64,000 nt of DNA. Source: an uncultured bacterium. GTDB lineage: Bacteria; Patescibacteriota; Minisyncoccia; Phycocordibacterales; PALSA-1337. The notes beneath the pieces were generated by a model. The model saw only the letters and a program-made list of their open reading frames with translations, was not told the origin of the DNA and ran no database searches. A program made the position numbers and the translations under genes. Shown in pieces: positions 852 through 11,039 of the stretch. Positions within the stretch are counted from its first letter, which is position 1; each line of letters opens with the position of its first letter. The stretch is taken from assembly GCA_903825415.1 (NCBI GenBank), contig CAIKAN010000028.1:3474-67473 (forward strand), in the 5' to 3' direction.

Positions 852-1583
852 ATGAGTACAGCCTTGAATGAAGTCCCGGGATGGTATATCGAATTCCAAG
901 CGGCGCTTTTGCGCCAAGCTCCTCGCCCGGGGGAGATTGATCAGATGACGGCCGAAGGATGGACCAGCAATCAAAAGGGTCTCAAAAAGAACCTGGCGAA
1001 TTGCCTCCTTCCTCAAACGTCCGTCGTCCCTGTCGAACCGGCCAAGCTCGAGCTTTTGCTCGATCTGGTTGGAACGGTTACAACATCGGCAACCACCAGC
1101 AAGTTCGTCGCCAAAGACAAGTTCGTGGTCAACACCAAGTGCAACGCTCCGGTGAAGATCTCGGCAGTCTGGGACAACTTCACCAGCTGGTTCCTGTCGG
1201 GCGACGGCAAGACCGAAGACCCTATCAGCGAACAGACGCTCCGCTACCACAAATTGCGGAAGTCTTCAGTTGATGGTCCCATCATTACCGAACTGGGTGG
1301 CGAGGAGAAATCCGAAACCACTTTGACGGAAATGTTCTCCTTGATGGAGAAGCAGAAGAATGGTGAAGACGGTGTTCTCCTGAACAACGGCTACGCCAAC
1401 ATCTTCTACATTCGGGACCAGAATGGTGTGCTTCGCGCGGTCTACGTGCGCTGGGACGACGACGGCTGGCGCGTCAGTGCGTTCTCCGTCGAGCTCCCGG
1501 ACGGGTGGGGTGATGGCGACCAGGTGTTCTCTCGCAATTCTGTTCTCGAATCCTCGGAACCTTCGGCTCCGGCGCAAGCCTGA
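852..1583 (+). CDS. DGR target (variable) protein with a C-terminal variable region, presumably a C-type-lectin/FGE-like fold
   Basis: The C-terminal segment …GVLRAVYVRWDDDGWRVSAFSVELPDGWGDGDQVFSR is the nucleotide-level homolog of the downstream template repeat. All mismatches fall at template adenines. Confidence 0.65.
   Translation: MSTALNEVPGWYIEFQAALLRQAPRPGEIDQMTAEGWTSNQKGLKKNLANCLLPQTSVVPVEPAKLELLLDLVGTVTTSATTSKFVAKDKFVVNTKCNAPVKISAVWDNFTSWFLSGDGKTEDPISEQTLRYHKLRKSSVDGPIITELGGEEKSETTLTEMFSLMEKQKNGEDGVLLNNGYANIFYIRDQNGVLRAVYVRWDDDGWRVSAFSVELPDGWGDGDQVFSRNSVLESSEPSAPAQA
1425..1536 (+). repeat. DGR variable region (VR)
   Basis: A roughly 112-nt stretch aligns with 1902-2013. About 17 mismatches, every one at a TR adenine, in the first and second positions of AAC codons. 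The shared 3' end CCAGGTGTTCTCTCG is IMH-like. A GC hairpin (CGGAACC…GGCTCCG) lies at about 1552-1574. Confidence 0.65.
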
Positions 1584-1901
1584 TCCTTTGTCCCTTGGAC
1601 CCTTTGACCCTCGGTCTGCTTCGGCGGATTGGGGGTCAATTTTTTTATATTTAAATTTCTCTTGCTATACTTATTTCCGAAATCATGTGTTACGTGACGG
1701 TCATGGCTTTCACGTCATGGTCTTAGGATATTTTTCTCGAGAGTCATACTGGGTACGCCTTGTATGAGAGTGGGGAAAGTCTCTTCAAAAAAATAACAAG
1801 AATTGGTATATGAGATTAGCGGACTTTGATGTCCCGGATAAAATTCAGCTGGTCATGGTTTGGCTGGCGGTGATATAGATGATCTTGTATACGATAACGC
1901 T

Positions 1902-2013
1902 GGTGTGCTTCGCGCGGTCAACGTGAACTGGAACGACGACGGCTGGAACGTCAATGCGAACTCCGTCGAGAACCCGAACAGGTGGAATGATGGCAACCAG
2001 GTGTTCTCTCGAA
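1902..2013 (+). repeat. DGR template repeat (TR); A-rich with many AAC codons
   Basis: Encodes …NVNWNDDGWNVNANSVENPNRWNDGN; the corresponding positions in the VR differ. ORFs in the track that overlap this repeat on either strand are judged to be translation artefacts. Confidence 0.65.
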
Positions 2014-2034
2014 ACTGTTGGTTTTCTCCTCGGC

Positions 2035-2429
2035 TTAAGGTCGGGGAGTTTTTGCTTGCAAACCCTTCTTCCAACCACCAAGTTGTCGCCCTATTTCCTC
2101 AAGTCTTCCGATTAAGTCCGAGTATGTATCAGTTGGAATAATTTTACTTTCCCATGCGAGTTGCACAAAGAACTTCACAATATCAAGTTTTGTGATGGCT
2201 TTGTTTAATATTGGTATTTTGTGTTCAGGTGGGAGATAAGAAAGACAGAATGTGTATTCAAGTACATCAAGAAAAGCCTGTTCAATTCTGTTTCCAATTC
2301 CATACCGTTCGACTTTCGGAAAATCACGATAGATAGAGAGCCAAAAACGATATGTCTCTTTCGATTTGAGAATTACCTGTGGTAATTCTCGGGGGGGGGG
2401 GTAATATGATCCTTATTAGTATGAGTCAT
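2035..2429 (-). CDS. avd: Avd-like four-helix-bundle protein (accessory variability determinant / 23S-IVS protein family); frame interrupted at the G11 (C11 on this strand) tract
   Basis: The minus-strand frame is open from 2412 to a TAA at 2035-2037. It translates to …ELPQVILKSKETYRFWLSIYRDFPKVERYGIGNRIEQAF…LDIVKFFVQLAWE…LIGRLEEIGRQLGGWKKGL. These match the FPxxERFGL…A.GS…EIGKML.GL family pattern and the Bordetella phage Avd EVGRILGSW. The only upstream ATG (plus coordinates 2429-2427) is out of frame by one nt. A 12-nt tract would give a protein of about 125 aa, MTHTNKDHITPPPPRELPQV…. Confidence 0.55.
2391..2401. repeat. G11/C11 homopolymer tract at the avd/RT junction
   Basis: Eleven consecutive G residues. 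The tract lies 4 nt upstream of the RT ATG at 2406, so it may act as the Shine-Dalgarno element. On the minus strand it lies inside the N-terminal coding region of the avd-like gene. Confidence 0.8.
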
Positions 2430-3416
2430 GAGTATAAGAATATCATATCCATCAAAAATCTATGCGATGCGTGGACCGAATTTATATGTGGCAAGAAATC
2501 TAAAAAGGACGTTGCTGAATTTTCTCTGAATCTCTCTCAAAACATTTTCAAATTGCACGAGGAACTGCGAACAAAAATGTATAGACATGGTGCATACGAA
2601 GCTTTTTCGATAAGTGATCCGAAACCGAGAAGTATTCACAAGGCTACGGTCCGAGATAGATTATTGCATCATGCTATTTACAGGATTTTGTATCCCTATT
2701 TTGATAAAAAGTTTATTTATGATTCCTACTCCTGTCGACAGTTCAAAGGAACACATCGAGCGTTAAATCGGTTCAATGATTTCATGATGAAAGTATCACA
2801 AAGTAATAGTAGGGCATGCTGGGTTCTGAAATGCGATGTAAGAAAGTTTTTCGCATCTATTGATCATGAAAAGCTTATTGAAATATTCAAGCGACATATT
2901 AATGATATGGAAACGATCTGGCTTGTTGAACGCATTGTTGAGAGTTTTCAAAGTACTGGTCCAGGTAAGGGTTTGCCTTTAGGTAACCTGACCTCGCAAC
3001 TTTTGGTAAATGTTTACATGAATGAGTTTGACCAGTTTGTGAAGCACAAGCTCAAAGCTAAGTATTATATTCGGTATGCCGATGACTTCGTTATTATGCA
3101 CCATGAGAAAGATGTGTTGGTGGATATTCTGCCAAAGGTCCAGAGCTTTCTCAGTGAGCAACTAAAGCTGTCTCTTCATCCAGATAAGGTGTTTATAAAG
3201 ACAGCTTCATCAGGCGTAGATTTTCTGGGATGGGTCCATTTTCCGCACCATCGAGTGATACGGATAACAACAAAAAATCGTATGTTCAAGAAAATCAAAG
3301 ATTCTCAAGAAAAGCCGGAAGTCGTCCAGTCGTACCTCGGACTTTTGAGTCATGGTAATGGTTGGAAATTGAAACAGAGAGTTAAGGATAAAATAGTGAA
3401 GACAAGGGTGGGGTAA
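2406..3416 (+). CDS. DGR reverse transcriptase
   Basis: RT motifs are present: N-terminal NLCDAW…GK, motif 4 LPLGNLTSQLL (the DGR-diagnostic [ILV]GxxxSQ), and motif 5 YADD. Size is about 337 aa with no maturase/X domain. The track ORF starts at GTG 2379; ATG 2406 or 2421 is more likely. Confidence 0.85.
   Translation: MILISMSHEYKNIISIKNLCDAWTEFICGKKSKKDVAEFSLNLSQNIFKLHEELRTKMYRHGAYEAFSISDPKPRSIHKATVRDRLLHHAIYRILYPYFDKKFIYDSYSCRQFKGTHRALNRFNDFMMKVSQSNSRACWVLKCDVRKFFASIDHEKLIEIFKRHINDMETIWLVERIVESFQSTGPGKGLPLGNLTSQLLVNVYMNEFDQFVKHKLKAKYYIRYADDFVIMHHEKDVLVDILPKVQSFLSEQLKLSLHPDKVFIKTASSGVDFLGWVHFPHHRVIRITTKNRMFKKIKDSQEKPEVVQSYLGLLSHGNGWKLKQRVKDKIVKTRVG
3393..3416 (+). repeat. ATAGTGA…GGGGTAA box, copy 3 (ATAGTGAAGACAAGGGTGGGGTAA); it overlaps the RT stop codon
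   Basis: Near-identical to copy 1 but read in a different frame. A GGGTAA…TTACCC hairpin follows it. Confidence 0.6.
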
Positions 3417-3472
3417 CTCAATAATTTTACCCGTAATAACGGGAAATTAACGGGAAGTCACTTTTTCGCAAC

Positions 3473-3496
3473 ATAGTGAGTGAGAGTGTGGGGTAA
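3473..3496 (+). repeat. ATAGTGA…GGGGTAA box, copy 4 (ATAGTGAGTGAGAGTGTGGGGTAA)
   Basis: Sequence comparison. Confidence 0.5.
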
Positions 3497-3679
3497 GACT
3501 GATAAAGCAGTTAAAAAGCAGTCTCGCACTCCGTTGTTAATACAACGTGAAAACAACGGCAGTTATTGCCGTTAAAAAACGGTGAAAAAACGGTTAACAC
3601 CCGCCCTTTAAAAAGGGTAAAAAAGGGCGTAGTTATTATAAATACAGATCTGATACAGAGAAGAAATTACTTTTTAGAT

Positions 3680-3703
3680 ATAGTGAGTGCTGGTGTAGGG
3701 TAA
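3680..3703 (+). repeat. ATAGTGA…GGGTAA box, copy 5 (ATAGTGAGTGCTGGTGTAGGGTAA)
   Basis: Sequence comparison. It starts 207 nt after copy 4, mirroring the 206-nt spacing between copies 1 and 2. Confidence 0.5.
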
Positions 3704-3865
3704 CAATCTTTGAAGCTCGGAATGTAGATCGTAGCATCGTCAATTTTTCGGAATATTTCTGTAACTTGAGCGACCACGCGACCCCGAGAAAATGACAGAA
3801 TATTGCGCGATATACCTATTACCTTCTGTGGAGACGGAGAAGAAGTTAGGCTATAATGGCTGATC

Positions 3866-4724: not shown

Positions 4725-7700
4725 ATGAATAAAACAAAACTCGCGCGGGTGGGGATCGTTGTGCTGGTCGTGGTCCTCTGTGTCGCTGCGTATGCGGTGT
4801 TTCATGGTTTGATAGGGAATCCTTTTCATATCCCAGCCAAGAATTATCAGGCCGCCTATCGTTTGGTCCCCGAGAAAGTCTCGCTATCGGCCGCCATCTC
4901 CGTCTCTTTGCCAACGGGAACGAGCATGCAGAATTTTGATCCGACGAAGCAGGTGATGTTCGACCCAAAGATAGAAGGAAGATGGATCGATGGTAAAGTC
5001 GCCTCGATCATACCGAGCGCGCATGCTGCTGAGGCGGAGCCTGTATATTATTTCCAGCCAAATAAAACGTTGGCTTTGAACAAGCATTATTCGGTGACCT
5101 TGGCGCTCTCTGAAGGGAAGACGATGCAGTCTGATTTTCTGGTCGTGCCTGATCCGGCTGTCATATCGATCTTGCCGCACGATGGAGAAGTTGTGACTGA
5201 TACCAAGATCAGTATCGTCTTCAATCGTCCGATGGTGCCCTTGAGCACGATAGATGAGATGTCACCGACAGATCCGCCCGTTTCTATTTCTCCGAACACG
5301 GCCGGCCGATTCAAGTGGATCAGCACCAACACCTTGCAATTCATATCCGATAGCGGTTTGATCGGATCAGCCAAATACACTGTTTCAGTCAAGGCCGGTC
5401 TCAAATCTCTCGAGGGGCTCGATGTGAAGCCGTTCACTGCATCATTTACGACCCGACATCTCCGATTTTGGACGGATCCTTCTTCGTATAGCGATAGCAA
5501 AGCGACTACCGCAGTAAGAGGCTATAATCAGCCATTCTTGATCAGATTCAATCAGGCCGTCGATCTGGATCGCACCAAAAATTCTGTGACTGTGAATGAT
5601 GGCGAAAAGAATATACCTTTCTCTGTGCAAGAAGGGAAGATCGATGGTCCGCTAGACCCTAGCATCATGGCTATCTATCCAGCTGGCGGAGATAGCGGAG
5701 TTTGGCAGCTACATCGCACTTATACCGTGACCGTCACCCATGCCTATCCAGCATCCCATGGAGATATCAGTCTCGATGCCCCTGGCACATTTTACTTTTC
5801 GGTAGATAATATCTATTCAAGCCTGACCGTTCTCTCACCGAGGACTAGCGATGCCAGTCTAGACCGCTTCGATCCACAGGGACAGCTAGCTATGCATTTT
5901 TATGAAGATATCGATCTGGCCAAAAGCAAGATCACTGGTCCAGCAGTCAACTCTGTAGTTTATGGAGAAAAGTGCAAAGATGATGTCAATACCTCGAAAT
6001 GTACAAAGGTTCCCGATCAGTCTCTTCTCCTTGTCTCTTTCGATGCTGACAAACTGAAGACTGGCGATACGACTGAGGTTGATCTCGATTCGATCGCTTC
6101 AGCCTCAGGAAATTCTCTGAGCTCTACTCGCACACCCATCAGTCTCAGTGTATACGGTCCTTTGGCTATATTTGATGTGAAATCTGGCGATTCTTTGAAT
6201 ACGCTCACAATCTGTTCCAATAATCCTTTGCAGACTGATAGCGCCAAGCAAAAGATCGATTCTACTCCAGTTGTTAAGCCTCTATCTTGGTCGCACTCTT
6301 ACAGATCAGATGTGAATCATTATGGCACGATCAGCCCTTGCGCGGTCGGTCAATTTATCACCTCGGTCTCTGGATATCTATTGCCTCAGGCTGGATATCA
6401 AGGAAAGATCGAAGCAGCCGATGTATTCGGAGGCTCAGCTAGCAAAGCTTTTGATTTCAGTACAAGAGATGCGACTGACAATGATTACGAGCTGCATAAT
6501 TATCAGAGCACGGACATCGTAGCTGTGCCAGGAAAGACCAAGATGACCTTTGCTGAGACATTCTTGCCGAGGATCACATCTACAGTCTGCCGCCTGTCTC
6601 CTTATGATTATTATCGAGTGCGACAAGATTATAAGCTCGACGCCAGAGACTATTGTCAGGAGACTGTTTCCAAAACGATAGAACTGCCGACTGATCAACC
6701 AGGCAGAGTCTTCTTTGGTGTCGATATCGCCGATTATTTTCCGGATCAGATCGGGAATTATGCCGTGCTCCTATCCAGCCCATTGTTGGCGGTGAATCGC
6801 AATAATTCATGGAGATATTCGACGGTCTCATATATCTCAGTGACGAATCTGGTCGTGACACAGAAGAGCATCAACCCTTCTTTGACTGCTGGTTATAATG
6901 GCGCCATTTTGAGAGGCGATCAGATCAATAAGCTGCAGAATATGTATTGGGTCATCGATGCTCGCACGCAAGGTCCGGTGGCAGGAGCATCTGTCAAAAC
7001 ATATAAAGATGGCAGTGTCGTGGAAACAGCTACGACCAATGATCAAGGCCTGGCATATCTCGTCCCGATCGCTGATCCTGAGATGACCGTCGTCTCGTTA
7101 GGCGGCGATAATGCTGTCATGGCTGGCGGCGCAACGGTTCTCAACTATGCTGAGAGCGCGAGCAATGCCCAAAAGACTTTCCTGTATACGGATAAACCGA
7201 TCTATCGACCTGGCCAAGAAGTAGATATCAAGGGCCTTTTACGAGCGGGGTATGACGGCTATTATGAAGCCCCGTCGGCTACTCCTATGACTCTCACTGT
7301 AACTGACCCTTCGAATGCAGCCGTGAAGCAAGTCCAATTGACACCCAACGGCTTCGGATCGATCAGTACTATTCTCGATCTCGACCCTTCAGCGAAGCTG
7401 GGAACATATAGCGCCTGTATCAAATATCAATGCGCCTATTTTGACGTCTTGGATTATGCCCCGGCAGCATTCAAGGTGGACATGACGACGGCTAAGGATG
7501 AGTATAATAAAGGCGATGATCCGGCTATCCAAGTCAGTTCCAATTATTATTTTGGCATCCCCGTCTCTAATGTGGCGTTGAATTATCATGTAAGCAGCCA
7601 ATATTATTATTTCGACAAGTACACCAAGGAATATCTCAACTTCAATAATCTAAGCGATGATATGGGGCAGGGTTATTATTATGGCGATCGCTATATAAGC

Positions 7701-10700
7701 AGCGGTCAAGCGACGCTCGATCAGAATGGTCAGACGACGATCAAGCCGACGGGCTCAGTCTTCTCAGGCACCGGCCAAGACCAGAGCAAGATCGTAGTGA
7801 TCGATTCGACGGTCAAGAATCAAGAAGGGAGGAGCATATCGGCGCAGAAATCATTCATCATGCATGCCGCACCGATATATATCGGAAGCAAGATCGTAGA
7901 GCCATTCATCGGCAAAGGAGAAGCGATCTCGCTCAAATTGAAGACTGTCGATACCGCTGCTAACCCAAGATCGCTCGGAGTCAAGGTCAATCTGTATCAC
8001 GTCTATTGGACGAGCACCAAGAACGGCAATGGCAATATGATCTGGGATCAAAAGCGCGATCTAGTCAAAGCCATTGACGCCAGCACGGATTCCAATGGCG
8101 ATGGCAGCCTTGCTCTGCCGCAAGTCGATGAAGGAGAATATGCCGTCGATGTCACCTCAGGGCAGGATGGCGCGGCAGTCGGCAGCCGATCTTGGTTCTA
8201 TGTCTATGGAGACCAGAATGTCTCTGTGAGGGGCAGCGACGATACATCGCTTGAAATGGTCTTGAATGATACCACGGTCAAGAGTGGCACTACGGCAGAA
8301 GTCCTGATCAAAATGCCGGAGGGGAAAGGCAAGGCGCTAGTGACGATCGAGCGAGGCAGCATCTATAGTTACAAGATCATAGATCTTACTGGGTCACTGA
8401 CTCGTTTTCAATTTCCCGTTGAGCAGAGATATTATCCCAATGTCTATGTGAGCGTCGTAGCCTATGCTCCGAACAGGGCAGTGCGCTTCGGCAGTCAGAA
8501 TATAAAGGTAGATAGCGATCAAAAGAAGCTCGATCTGACCATCTCTCCCGATAAGCAGCAATATAGCCCTGGCGATAAGGTGACATTGAATATCCGCTCT
8601 ACTGATTCCAGCGGCAAGCCTGTCATCGCTGATGTCTCATTAGCCGTTGTCGAGATGAATGTGCTCGCGCTTCGAGGCAATCCTCACAAGGACCCGCTCC
8701 AATATTTTTACGGGAATATCCCGCTCACAATTGGAACAGCGTCGAATTACAAGAGCTTGCTCAAGGATATACCTTGGCAAAGCAGTGACGGCAAGGGAGG
8801 GGGAGGTGGAGACCTAGACAAGCAGAAGAGCCGCGGCAATTTCAAGGAAGTGGCCTATTGGAATGCTGATATCATGACGGATCAAGGCGGCAATGCTGTC
8901 CTCTCATTCGTTTTGCCGGACAATCTGACGACTTGGCAAGCAGAGGCAGTCGGCATCACACAGGATACGAGCCTCGGAGTGGCTTATAAGGAATTCATCT
9001 CGAGCAAAGAGCTGATGATCGTTCCTCTCGAGCCGCGATTCGTATTGCCTGGCGATAAGTTCTCTCTGGGGGCGACTATCTTCAATAATAGCCGAAATGA
9101 TTTCAAGGGGAGCGTCGCTTTGACGGTCCCATCTACACTAGATTCTTCAAAAGCCTCTCTGAAGAGCGACATGAGCTTGAAGGCGGGGGAATCAAAAGAT
9201 GTATATTTTGATCTGTCTGTGCCTGAAACAGCTCAGCCTGGAGATATCCCTTATACTATCGAGGCCTCTGGATCAGGCTTATCGGATTCGGTCGTGGACA
9301 CGATCAAAGTCAATCCGAGCAGCGCATACGAGGTGACTGCGACGGCCGGTCAAACCGATTCTTCCGCCAGCGAATCAATATATGTTCCTACTACCATAAT
9401 CCCGAATATGGGCGAATTGTCTGTCAGAAGCTCGGCCACTCTAGCTATGTATCTGCCTCAGGCTTTGAATTATATGATCGATTATCCTTATGATTGCACT
9501 GAACAGATGGGGAGCCAGATCCAAGCGATAGCGCTCATGGATAAGGCACATCTGCTTTTCACCAACGGGACTTCTACTTATACAGGGAAGATCTTGTTCG
9601 ATGGAAAGGAACAAAAAGCTCAGGATATCATCCAGAGCCGATTGCAATCGATATATAACAGGCAGAGCTCCGATGGAGGATTCAGGCTCTGGTCCGAAAG
9701 CTATAGTTCGAGCTTATTCGCGACCGAGGAAGCTTTGAAGGCTTTTGACACCCTGAAGAGCGCTGGCTATAGCATCGATGAGACTGCTTGGGATAAGGGC
9801 GCAGATTATCTGTACAGTCAATATTCACATTCGAATATAGTATATTCAGACGAAGAGATCATTGCTTTTGCGGAAGCCCTATACACGAGGCCGCGATATG
9901 TCTCTGATCTATCCTTCGCGAAAGATTTCAATTCTGCCGTAGATCGTATCCTTAAAAATGAAACTGTCTCTACCGGCACCTTGCTCTCCATTAGCGGATT
10001 GTCGCATCGATACGGATTCTTGGCTTCGCAATCAAAAAAGATCGATCTCACGCTTGAGAACAGGGTGATAGTCGATTCTCGAGGCAGTTTCCTTGATGCT
10101 TCTAGTGGCGGCTATCGCTATGAGACTGCTATATCTAATACAGCTCGCTATATAGAATTGCTCTCCATGGAAAAGCAAAATCAGGCCGAATTGCCAAATC
10201 TATTGCGCTGGCTGACCCTGTCGCGCTCGAAAGACGGCTCATGGGACTCGACAGAGAATAATCTGGCTGTGATCAAGGGTTTCACCCAGTATCTCGATTG
10301 GCAGCCTGAGACATCTGCTGTCTTCATGGAAACCAATTCCTTGAATGGGGAGACGATCGATACCTTCTCTTATAAGCCTGAAAATATCCTGACCACGATC
10401 TCGAAGACTCTGCCTATGAGCCGATTGCAGTTCGGTGGCATGAATACGGTGGCCTTCGCCAGATCGGCCGATGGAGCCGCTTCAAAAGGCAAGATCTATT
10501 ACGACCTTAGCTTGAAGTATTATCTTCCGGCCGATACTATGGGACCGCGTGATGAGGGCTTTGCTATCTCGCATGGATTCTATGCTCTATCCGATACCAA
10601 AGGGCAGACCCCCATCAACCAAGCGCATGTTGGAGATGTTCTGCGGGAGCATATCGAATTCACCGTGCCGGTGACCAGGAATGATGTATCGATCGAAGAC

Positions 10701-11039
10701 TTCATCCCTGCAGGAATGGAGATAGTCGATACTAGTCTAGCGACTGAAGATAAGACCCTTTCTAACGACGTCGTTCGTTCGGCGTATGAAGATCAAGATA
10801 TTTCCAACAGTGAACAGGATGTGCAAGATTCGACATTCTGGCCAGACCATCAGGAGTGGAAGGATGATCGAGCTTTTCTCTATAAAGAGAGCCTTAGCCC
10901 AGGCACCTATTCATTCGATTATAAAGTGAGAGCGCTCGTTCCGGGCAAATATCTGCGCCTGCCAAGCCAGATCTCTGAATTATACACGCCTGAGAATTTC
11001 GGTCGCACAGGAGCAGGATCATTTACTATCGATAAATAG
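4725..11039 (+). CDS. alpha-2-macroglobulin family protein with a thioester, N-terminally membrane-anchored
   Basis: 2104 aa. N-terminal TM helix. Thioester motif DYPYDCTEQMG (CxEQ). Large beta-rich body. Confidence 0.85.
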   Translation: MNKTKLARVGIVVLVVVLCVAAYAVFHGLIGNPFHIPAKNYQAAYRLVPEKVSLSAAISVSLPTGTSMQNFDPTKQVMFDPKIEGRWIDGKVASIIPSAHAAEAEPVYYFQPNKTLALNKHYSVTLALSEGKTMQSDFLVVPDPAVISILPHDGEVVTDTKISIVFNRPMVPLSTIDEMSPTDPPVSISPNTAGRFKWISTNTLQFISDSGLIGSAKYTVSVKAGLKSLEGLDVKPFTASFTTRHLRFWTDPSSYSDSKATTAVRGYNQPFLIRFNQAVDLDRTKNSVTVNDGEKNIPFSVQEGKIDGPLDPSIMAIYPAGGDSGVWQLHRTYTVTVTHAYPASHGDISLDAPGTFYFSVDNIYSSLTVLSPRTSDASLDRFDPQGQLAMHFYEDIDLAKSKITGPAVNSVVYGEKCKDDVNTSKCTKVPDQSLLLVSFDADKLKTGDTTEVDLDSIASASGNSLSSTRTPISLSVYGPLAIFDVKSGDSLNTLTICSNNPLQTDSAKQKIDSTPVVKPLSWSHSYRSDVNHYGTISPCAVGQFITSVSGYLLPQAGYQGKIEAADVFGGSASKAFDFSTRDATDNDYELHNYQSTDIVAVPGKTKMTFAETFLPRITSTVCRLSPYDYYRVRQDYKLDARDYCQETVSKTIELPTDQPGRVFFGVDIADYFPDQIGNYAVLLSSPLLAVNRNNSWRYSTVSYISVTNLVVTQKSINPSLTAGYNGAILRGDQINKLQNMYWVIDARTQGPVAGASVKTYKDGSVVETATTNDQGLAYLVPIADPEMTVVSLGGDNAVMAGGATVLNYAESASNAQKTFLYTDKPIYRPGQEVDIKGLLRAGYDGYYEAPSATPMTLTVTDPSNAAVKQVQLTPNGFGSISTILDLDPSAKLGTYSACIKYQCAYFDVLDYAPAAFKVDMTTAKDEYNKGDDPAIQVSSNYYFGIPVSNVALNYHVSSQYYYFDKYTKEYLNFNNLSDDMGQGYYYGDRYISSGQATLDQNGQTTIKPTGSVFSGTGQDQSKIVVIDSTVKNQEGRSISAQKSFIMHAAPIYIGSKIVEPFIGKGEAISLKLKTVDTAANPRSLGVKVNLYHVYWTSTKNGNGNMIWDQKRDLVKAIDASTDSNGDGSLALPQVDEGEYAVDVTSGQDGAAVGSRSWFYVYGDQNVSVRGSDDTSLEMVLNDTTVKSGTTAEVLIKMPEGKGKALVTIERGSIYSYKIIDLTGSLTRFQFPVEQRYYPNVYVSVVAYAPNRAVRFGSQNIKVDSDQKKLDLTISPDKQQYSPGDKVTLNIRSTDSSGKPVIADVSLAVVEMNVLALRGNPHKDPLQYFYGNIPLTIGTASNYKSLLKDIPWQSSDGKGGGGGDLDKQKSRGNFKEVAYWNADIMTDQGGNAVLSFVLPDNLTTWQAEAVGITQDTSLGVAYKEFISSKELMIVPLEPRFVLPGDKFSLGATIFNNSRNDFKGSVALTVPSTLDSSKASLKSDMSLKAGESKDVYFDLSVPETAQPGDIPYTIEASGSGLSDSVVDTIKVNPSSAYEVTATAGQTDSSASESIYVPTTIIPNMGELSVRSSATLAMYLPQALNYMIDYPYDCTEQMGSQIQAIALMDKAHLLFTNGTSTYTGKILFDGKEQKAQDIIQSRLQSIYNRQSSDGGFRLWSESYSSSLFATEEALKAFDTLKSAGYSIDETAWDKGADYLYSQYSHSNIVYSDEEIIAFAEALYTRPRYVSDLSFAKDFNSAVDRILKNETVSTGTLLSISGLSHRYGFLASQSKKIDLTLENRVIVDSRGSFLDASSGGYRYETAISNTARYIELLSMEKQNQAELPNLLRWLTLSRSKDGSWDSTENNLAVIKGFTQYLDWQPETSAVFMETNSLNGETIDTFSYKPENILTTISKTLPMSRLQFGGMNTVAFARSADGAASKGKIYYDLSLKYYLPADTMGPRDEGFAISHGFYALSDTKGQTPINQAHVGDVLREHIEFTVPVTRNDVSIEDFIPAGMEIVDTSLATEDKTLSNDVVRSAYEDQDISNSEQDVQDSTFWPDHQEWKDDRAFLYKESLSPGTYSFDYKVRALVPGKYLRLPSQISELYTPENFGRTGAGSFTIDK

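Follow-up and report, generated by a model that had tools for sequence, protein, structure and literature searches.

Locus and diversity-generating retroelement

We analysed a complete diversity-generating retroelement (DGR) at positions 852-3416 of a 64-kb stretch of contig CAIKAN010000028.1 from an uncultured patescibacterium. This whole stretch is called the window (WIN for its DGR locus), minus-strand features are given in plus coordinates, and related loci are numbered L001 to L107. Our subject is the avd gene of the element and a run of 11 G/C pairs that lies between the Avd coding frame and its proposed start codon. On the plus strand, the cassette comprises a target gene (852..1583, 243 aa, no Pfam match) that carries the variable repeat (VR, 1424-1537) near its C-terminus, a template repeat (TR, 1901..2014), and the gene for the reverse transcriptase (RT, 2406..3416, 336 aa). 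TR is a 114-nt repeat with 85% identity to VR, and all 17 substitutions between the two within the repeat fall at TR adenines, which is the hallmark of a DGR. The RT matched RVT_1 at 96 bits and contains LGNLTSQ, ending at residue 198 (SQ at 197-198), and YADD at residue 224; its start was placed by homology (M-x6-H-x-Y).

Between TR and RT, the minus strand carries a gene of the Avd family, as had been proposed in the original prediction, which was made from the sequence without database searches. The Avd domain (2035..2391, 118 codons from CGA at 2391-2389 to TAA at 2037-2035) has no start codon of its own, and the frame is open from 2412 to the same TAA, giving 125 codons instead of the 120 counted at first. 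The translation matched the Pfam profile bAvd (PF22296) with 46.5 bits, above the gathering cut-off of 40, and the NCBIfam model DivGenRetAVD (NF033474) with E=1e-16, although the score of 61 in the latter case is below the equivalog cut-off of 80. A sequence search of the PDB with Avd gave no match, and the likeness to known structures was found by fold search. AlphaFold predicts a four-helix bundle (pLDDT 89), with a TM-score of 0.80-0.88 to the Bordetella phage Avd (4dwl) and of 0.77-0.83 to the Avd chains of the DGR ribonucleoprotein 8ub7. The predicted isoelectric point (pI) is 9.4, so that the gene would encode a small basic protein beside a DGR RT.

No ATG, GTG or TTG is present in the Avd frame from 2412 until a GTG at 2178. 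The sole upstream ATG (2429-2427), which is the proposed avd start, opens the leader open reading frame (ORF) MTHTNKDHITPPPENYHR* (2373..2429, minus strand), with 10 codons before the tract, and this leader is one base out of frame with the Avd domain, as originally noted. The two are separated by G11 on the plus strand, that is C11 in the avd sense (2391..2401), which is the only G/C run of at least 7 nt in the 64-kb window. The leader is joined to Avd only when one nucleotide is gained (C12) or two are lost (C9), giving ...HITPPPRELPQVILK..., in which the run encodes a PPP linker between leader and Avd; the junction peptide of the in-frame leader-PPP-Avd product is ...DHITPPPRELPQVILK. The C12 product has 131 aa and three prolines (...HITPPPRELPQV), in place of the approximately 125 aa and four prolines expected earlier, and the C9 product has 130 aa. 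An ATT, the seventh codon after the tract, was considered as a near-cognate avd start and rejected, there being no convincing Shine-Dalgarno (SD) sequence. A perfect 10-bp hairpin, GAGAATTACC-nnn-GGTAATTCTC (2368..2390; dG -12.9 kcal/mol, z about -5), abuts the tract.

The divergent avd and RT genes overlap at their 5' ends, in agreement with the original prediction: the start of the avd leader and that of RT overlap by 24 nt on opposite strands, and each start codon reads on the opposite strand as a His codon of the other gene, an arrangement that recurs in related loci. The RT ATG (2406) lies 4 nt beyond the end of the G-run. In the window allele only, a GTG at 2379 on the plus strand reads through G11 in frame with RT (MVILGGGGNM..., 2379-2405); this extension is probably coincidental, and the tract length would also switch it. 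On the avd side, an extended -10-like element, TGATATTCT (2437..2445, minus strand), ends 7 nt upstream of the leader ATG, and the pattern TGATAT-N10-ATG, read in the avd sense, is present in approximately 45 related loci. This suggests that the avd mRNA may be leaderless, with transcription starting at the leader ATG. Against this possibility, the strand opposite TGATATTCT encodes the conserved RT residues Y-x-x-I, and the region may be dual-coded.

A repeat of conserved position at the leader/Avd junction

Scanning the GTDB species representatives with the RT gave 558 relatives, of which the best 80 were kept. All 80 loci are from Patescibacteria; identities fall to 58% for RT and to 30% for Avd, and the sequence amounts to 588 kb in total. 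Sufficient upstream DNA was present in 75 loci, and all of these have avd directly upstream of RT on the opposite strand. The placement of Avd opposite to TR and RT, which had been taken for an unusual architecture, is therefore the rule among these relatives, and it corresponds to TR-(avd)-RT, the architecture B3 reported for 90% of the DGRs of the Candidate Phyla Radiation (CPR) (Wu et al. 2018, PMC5758913).

A C-run of 6-14 nt (mode 10), encoding PP, PPP or PPPP, was found between a short leader and helix 1 of Avd in 68 of the 75 loci, and it is at least 8 nt long in 64 loci. The specificity of this site is high: among the G/C runs of 8 nt or more, 64 are located at the leader/Avd junction of the 80 loci and five elsewhere in the 588 kb, two of these five being the same junction on truncated contigs. 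Six of the 75 loci have no poly-C and carry another perfect repeat at the same spot, namely (CTGG)x10.2 in L019, (TGATTGC)x11.1 in L041, (CA)x9 in L024, (CT)x9 in L036, (GA)x11 in L064 and (GA)x6 in L070. The repeat units at the junction are 1, 2, 4 and 7 nt long, none of them a multiple of three. In L016, the tract is an interrupted CCCTCCC within an uninterrupted in-frame ORF (MLKFNSDHSHKVPSRQILPVL...); because this ORF reads through, the leader is taken to be the real N-terminus of Avd when the frame allows.

Two further observations concern the repeats of related loci. L064 and L070 are related and share the same leader (MNNLKTEITVERND) with (GA)11 and (GA)6, respectively, and a second in-frame ATG just before the repeat is a possible alternative start. 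Other G9-G10 runs near a DGR are present in L052 (3404-3413 and 5253-5262) and L013 (7071-7079); one of them abuts a TATAAT box upstream of a gene for a signal-peptide protein just after RT, and another is separated by 12 nt from a second Avd/S23-like gene downstream. These runs may be further phase-variable sites in Patescibacteria.

Tract length and reading frame among close relatives

A further 27 contigs of the window's lineage came from metagenomes scanned for the pattern of hairpin and tract. Every tract length reported here is that of an assembly consensus. In the window's lineage, the tract ranges from 7 to 13 nt over 38 loci from many projects, and the same leader occurs with G7 to G12. 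G11 was found in five assemblies of the window's sub-lineage (WIN, L002, L004, L090 and L105) and, given this recurrence, is no one-off assembly error.

Three pairs of loci with flanks 99.9-100% identical outside VR differ in tract length. L093 and L107, with G8 and G9, are identical over 1124 nt downstream and show four differences in 2014 nt upstream, all four in VR. Likewise, L100 (G11) and L106 (G12) are identical over 5282 nt downstream, with four differences in 874 nt upstream, three of which are in VR. The third pair, L096 (G10) and L101 (G8), is 99.9% identical over 2445 nt downstream, and its upstream differences include a cluster in VR. Judged from these assemblies, the tract is the most mutable site of the locus, near-identical genomes changing mainly in the diversified codons and in repeat length. 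Near-identical contigs of sister lineages differ almost only inside VR.

In every complete locus, Avd is open over 116-186 codons from the tract to the stop codon without internal stops, irrespective of the leader frame. The tract is also where the Avd frame opens, in many cases 0-5 nt from an upstream stop. The comparison of orthologous loci suggested in the original prediction has thus revealed varying tract lengths and mixed frames together with an intact Avd, which argues against a pseudogene.

For the frame of the leader, a canonical leader was defined by the conserved TGATAT-N10-ATG pattern. Only three of 47 GTDB loci have a canonical leader in frame with Avd, the other two frames being represented by 21 and 23 loci. 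In the window's lineage (34 loci), the leader frames +1/-1/0 are distributed as 17/11/6, i.e. six of 34 are in frame. When the loci with canonical leaders were pooled, seven of 71 were in frame (binomial P=4e-6 against 1/3, on the assumption that loci are independent draws, which is reasonable given the fast change of the tract, albeit unproven). Counting any upstream in-frame ATG gave 11 of 66 in frame. In-frame alleles thus make up roughly 10-18% of the total. The natural in-frame alleles L007, L025, L072, L082, L085, L097 and L107 encode a predicted M-leader-PP(P)-Avd product. When in-frame (ON) alleles were compared with contig breaks at VR/TR, no pattern was found, the numbers being too small. 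Exact look-ups of the RT with its three possible starts gave no matches and no same-strain tract alleles, and an exact look-up of the neighbouring His_Phos_1 gene returned only 1.3-kb contigs ending before the cassette.

A candidate slipped-strand switch on Avd

We propose, with a probability of roughly 0.6, that the G11/C11 tract is a slipped-strand DNA phase switch on Avd, mostly OFF in the population consensus, which would gate DGR mutagenesis. Translation of Avd would start at the leader ATG (2429-2427), read the C-run as a poly-proline linker and proceed into the four-helix Avd domain. Replication slippage would change the length of the run at high frequency, and one length class in three (here C9/C12) would join the leader to Avd; the C11 allele of the window would be OFF. 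If Avd has the role known from the Bordetella phage system, cDNA synthesis by the RT and homing would depend on it. A minority of cells would then be switched to adenine mutagenesis of the target gene and locked OFF again, and populations swept by a good VR variant would be predominantly OFF ("mutate, then lock").

The locus has several of the features by which phase-variable genes are recognized, namely a non-triplet perfect repeat in the 5' coding region, length polymorphism in near-identical genomes, and an ORF that is restored at some lengths. A contingency locus operating by replication slippage is favoured by the deep conservation of position, the variation in length, the exchange of repeat type, the 5' location and the full-length products at the right repeat numbers. 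Moreover, replication slips on 4- and 7-nt units, on which neither ribosomes nor RNA polymerase slip, and repeats of this kind make ribosomal or transcriptional slippage hard to uphold as a general mechanism. The rarity of in-frame consensus alleles (below 1/3) fits winners that would be locked OFF. A mostly OFF state also agrees with the below-average DGR activity of DGR clade 2 (Patescibacteria) in population data (PMC8144416). The slipped-strand ON/OFF switch of the original prediction has therefore gained strong comparative support, at the level of assembled sequences, from the conserved position, length variation, repeat exchange and intact Avd. The accompanying idea that RT and Avd are coupled through the tract holds only in part, since tract length leaves the spacing to the RT start unchanged.

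Several points weigh against a DNA switch. The alleles are all assembly consensuses, in which homopolymer calls can be wrong, and the mixture of lengths within a population is thus something that we infer. That in-frame alleles are so strongly underrepresented could instead point to recoding, with expression from the out-of-frame arrangement itself, and a C-run of Pro codons directly followed by a stable hairpin resembles a ribosomal frameshift cassette. The avd start codon is a putative assignment, and reversibility within a population is presumed. The step from Avd OFF to DGR OFF is borrowed from the Bordetella system, dependence of a DGR on Avd being known experimentally only from distant DGRs. 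Finally, the binomial tests treat the loci as independent draws.

Alternative explanations

The alternative that survives best, although we regard it as unlikely, is programmed recoding, in which Avd would be produced from out-of-frame DNA by stuttering of RNA polymerase or by a ribosomal -1/+1 shift of tRNA-Pro on the C-run. Poly-proline stalling and the adjacent hairpin would assist the ribosomal shift, and tract length would tune the dose, with no on/off switch. Recoding would suit the finding that approximately 82-94% of the alleles are out of frame, with the wrong frames roughly even, yet avd is intact everywhere, and it would also suit a run of at least 8 nt in most loci. CCC-C is a classic +1-prone site. 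The arrangement is also similar to that of frameshift or transcriptional slippage cassettes (dnaX, IS elements, prfB), in which a slippery homopolymer is followed by a stem-loop and a short upstream ORF is out of frame with the main ORF. The window's lineage and approximately 10 other loci have a strong hairpin directly after the run, and a hairpin of other sequence occupies the same position in L028, L033, L034, L056, L067 and L078. However, the hairpin is absent in many loci (mean z -1.5) and was rejected as a universal RNA element, being strong in some lineages only. Unlike the known cassettes, the window's clade has neither a fixed frame relation nor a fixed tract length; no fixed direction of shift was found even among near-identical genomes, as +1, -1 and 0 all occur within one lineage. 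The homopolymer, furthermore, is exchangeable with the 2-, 4- and 7-nt repeats of sister loci, for which DNA is the only level of action at this place. Most documented cases of transcriptional slippage involve A/T runs, and pure frame-agnostic slippage predicts that approximately 1/3 of the DNA alleles are in frame, whereas 10% was observed.

Recoding and a DNA switch could coexist. A stricter form, in which out-of-frame is the normal working state and Avd would be made only via programmed slippage, with the dose set by tract length and proline decoding (elongation factor EF-P, tRNA m1G37), seems to us slightly more doubtful again. If true, programmed slippage would be a physiological, stress-responsive throttle on the mutator, on top of the DNA-level switch.

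It is improbable, in our view, that the run primarily serves the other strand, either for ribosome binding at RT or as an RNA element of RT or the DGR, while Avd tolerates a proline linker and the noise in length is a side effect. In most loci, the RT ATG follows the G-run at a distance of 4-16 nt, with no other obvious SD-like sequence, so that the role of SD element for RT, as originally predicted, is plausible from its location. Nevertheless, the distance to the RT start varies (at least 21 nt in L010 and approximately 55 nt in L054), the position relative to helix 1 of Avd is constant, and loci with (GA)n and (GCAATCA)n have no G-rich element in the RT sense. The G-run is hence not the common denominator of the loci, and an SD at constant distance was rejected on account of the variable spacing and of the replacement repeats, which are not G-rich. 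Base pairs of the hairpin point both ways, as the closing pair in L007 is U-G in the RT sense and C-A in the avd sense, whereas a wobble pair in L078 favours the avd sense. In addition, a side effect that breaks the frame of an essential accessory gene would be selected against, and an interrupted tract such as that of L016 would cost nothing, yet it is rare.

Artefact or decay, i.e. a homopolymer miscall in the assembly of a true C12 or a dead avd pseudogene, can be essentially excluded, for even though the sequencing of homopolymers is error-prone and the window allele has no usable in-frame start codon, the same G11 recurs in five assemblies, different lengths were recovered for the lineage by many projects, Avd is conserved and open wherever the locus is complete, its predicted fold is intact, and the site specificity of the runs is extreme.

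Relation to known systems and significance

In the DGR of Bordetella phage BPP-1 (mtd-avd-TR-brt; bAvd pentamer bound to bRT, 4dwl/8ub7), avd is co-directional, upstream of TR, and has an ordinary start codon and no repeat tract. The cassette of the window shares with this system the Avd fold (TM-score approximately 0.8), the basic pI of Avd, the RT motifs and the adenine-specific TR/VR relation, but the sequence identity of the two Avd proteins is only approximately 14%. Other counterparts are the CPR-type B3 cassette (PMC5758913) and DGR clade 2 (Roux et al. 2021, PMC8144416), with the same order of a target gene with a C-terminal VR, TR, a reverse-strand avd and RT in Patescibacteria hosts. 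These two accounts make no mention of a repeat tract, an out-of-frame leader, a 24-nt overlap or a hairpin after TR.

Simple sequence repeat (SSR) contingency loci (for background, see PMC2831843 and PMC1891110) include the poly-G/C tracts of Campylobacter, Neisseria and Bordetella pertussis and the 7C tract of Mycobacterium tuberculosis glpK. As in these loci, a homopolymer or short repeat with a non-triplet unit lies in the 5' coding region, is polymorphic in length and leaves the ORF intact in one length class. The junction described here differs in that the gene gated would be an accessory factor of a second, independent hypermutation system and not a surface antigen or restriction-modification gene, and in that the repeat site is kept across a deep clade, in which Avd identity falls to 30%, with turnover of the repeat type. 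The hosts, too, are free-living or episymbiotic Patescibacteria, not pathogens, and in-frame alleles are fewer than expected by chance. In the literature searched on DGRs combined with homopolymer, simple sequence repeat, phase variation or Patescibacteria, a scope outside which the CPR DGR paper of Paul et al. 2017 falls, a repeat-gated avd was nowhere described. SSR phase variation and DGRs are each known; what appears to be new is that the two are coupled, and that the coupling is conserved in a large clade.

Among natural systems that diversify proteins, DGRs are the most extreme, and they occur especially often in Patescibacteria. To our knowledge, how their activity is controlled is essentially unknown. 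If the proposed slipped-strand switch is real, it would constitute a two-tier evolvability circuit, in which the cells that run a targeted mutator would be selected by a switch that is stochastic, heritable and reversible, and beneficial variants would be fixed by locking the mutator off. It would also account for the frequent lack of a callable avd start codon in CPR genomes, for the dominance of OFF alleles in assemblies, and for the lower apparent activity of CPR DGRs in population surveys (PMC8144416). The switch would be relevant to the engineering of controllable DGR-based mutagenesis, and it is testable with existing metagenomic reads.

Other features of the cassette and its surroundings

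Immediately 3' of TR, a terminator-like hairpin, CTCCTCGGC..GTCGGGGAG followed by TTTTTGCTTG (2026..2048, plus strand), straddles the avd stop codon. A comparable hairpin and T-run is present in 58 of 67 related loci (L006-L080), with a conserved outer stem (CTCyCC...GGrGAG) and then TTTTGTTTT, the sequence of the inner stem being variable. As this hairpin directly follows TR, the TR RNA may stop before avd and so end before an antisense run through that gene, which weakens the earlier claim that avd is antisense to a transcript of the TR-RT spacer. The TR RNA may be a discrete transcript of approximately 370 nt, or the hairpin may be an RNA element of the DGR. Two further candidates on the plus strand come from consensus scans only: a terminator-like hairpin with a T-run directly after the target gene (1604..1639) and a promoter-like site (1644-1671) that could start the TR transcript. 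No match was obtained when the window was scanned for Rfam families and tRNAs.

The cassette is flanked by a 25-nt direct repeat (96% identical) at 407-431, the 3' end of an ORF at 184-438, and at 3390-3414, the 3' end of RT. A 27-nt repeat family (ATAGTGArTGAG..TGTrGGGTAA) occurs three or four times around it (614-640, 3470-3496 and 3677-3703). In L002, the homologue of ORF 184-438 is downstream of RT, not upstream as in the window, and the same-strain assemblies other than that of the window break near 3780. The cassette looks recombined or mobile.

Homology of the target gene with L001, L002, L007 and L096 begins only at approximately 1086, 852-1085 being different, despite 83-98% identity over TR-avd-RT. 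This suggests that the N-terminal third of the target gene may be swapped between relatives, so that the targets would be modular. Downstream of the cassette lies a 2104-aa ORF with an N-terminal hydrophobic segment (4725-11039, plus strand).

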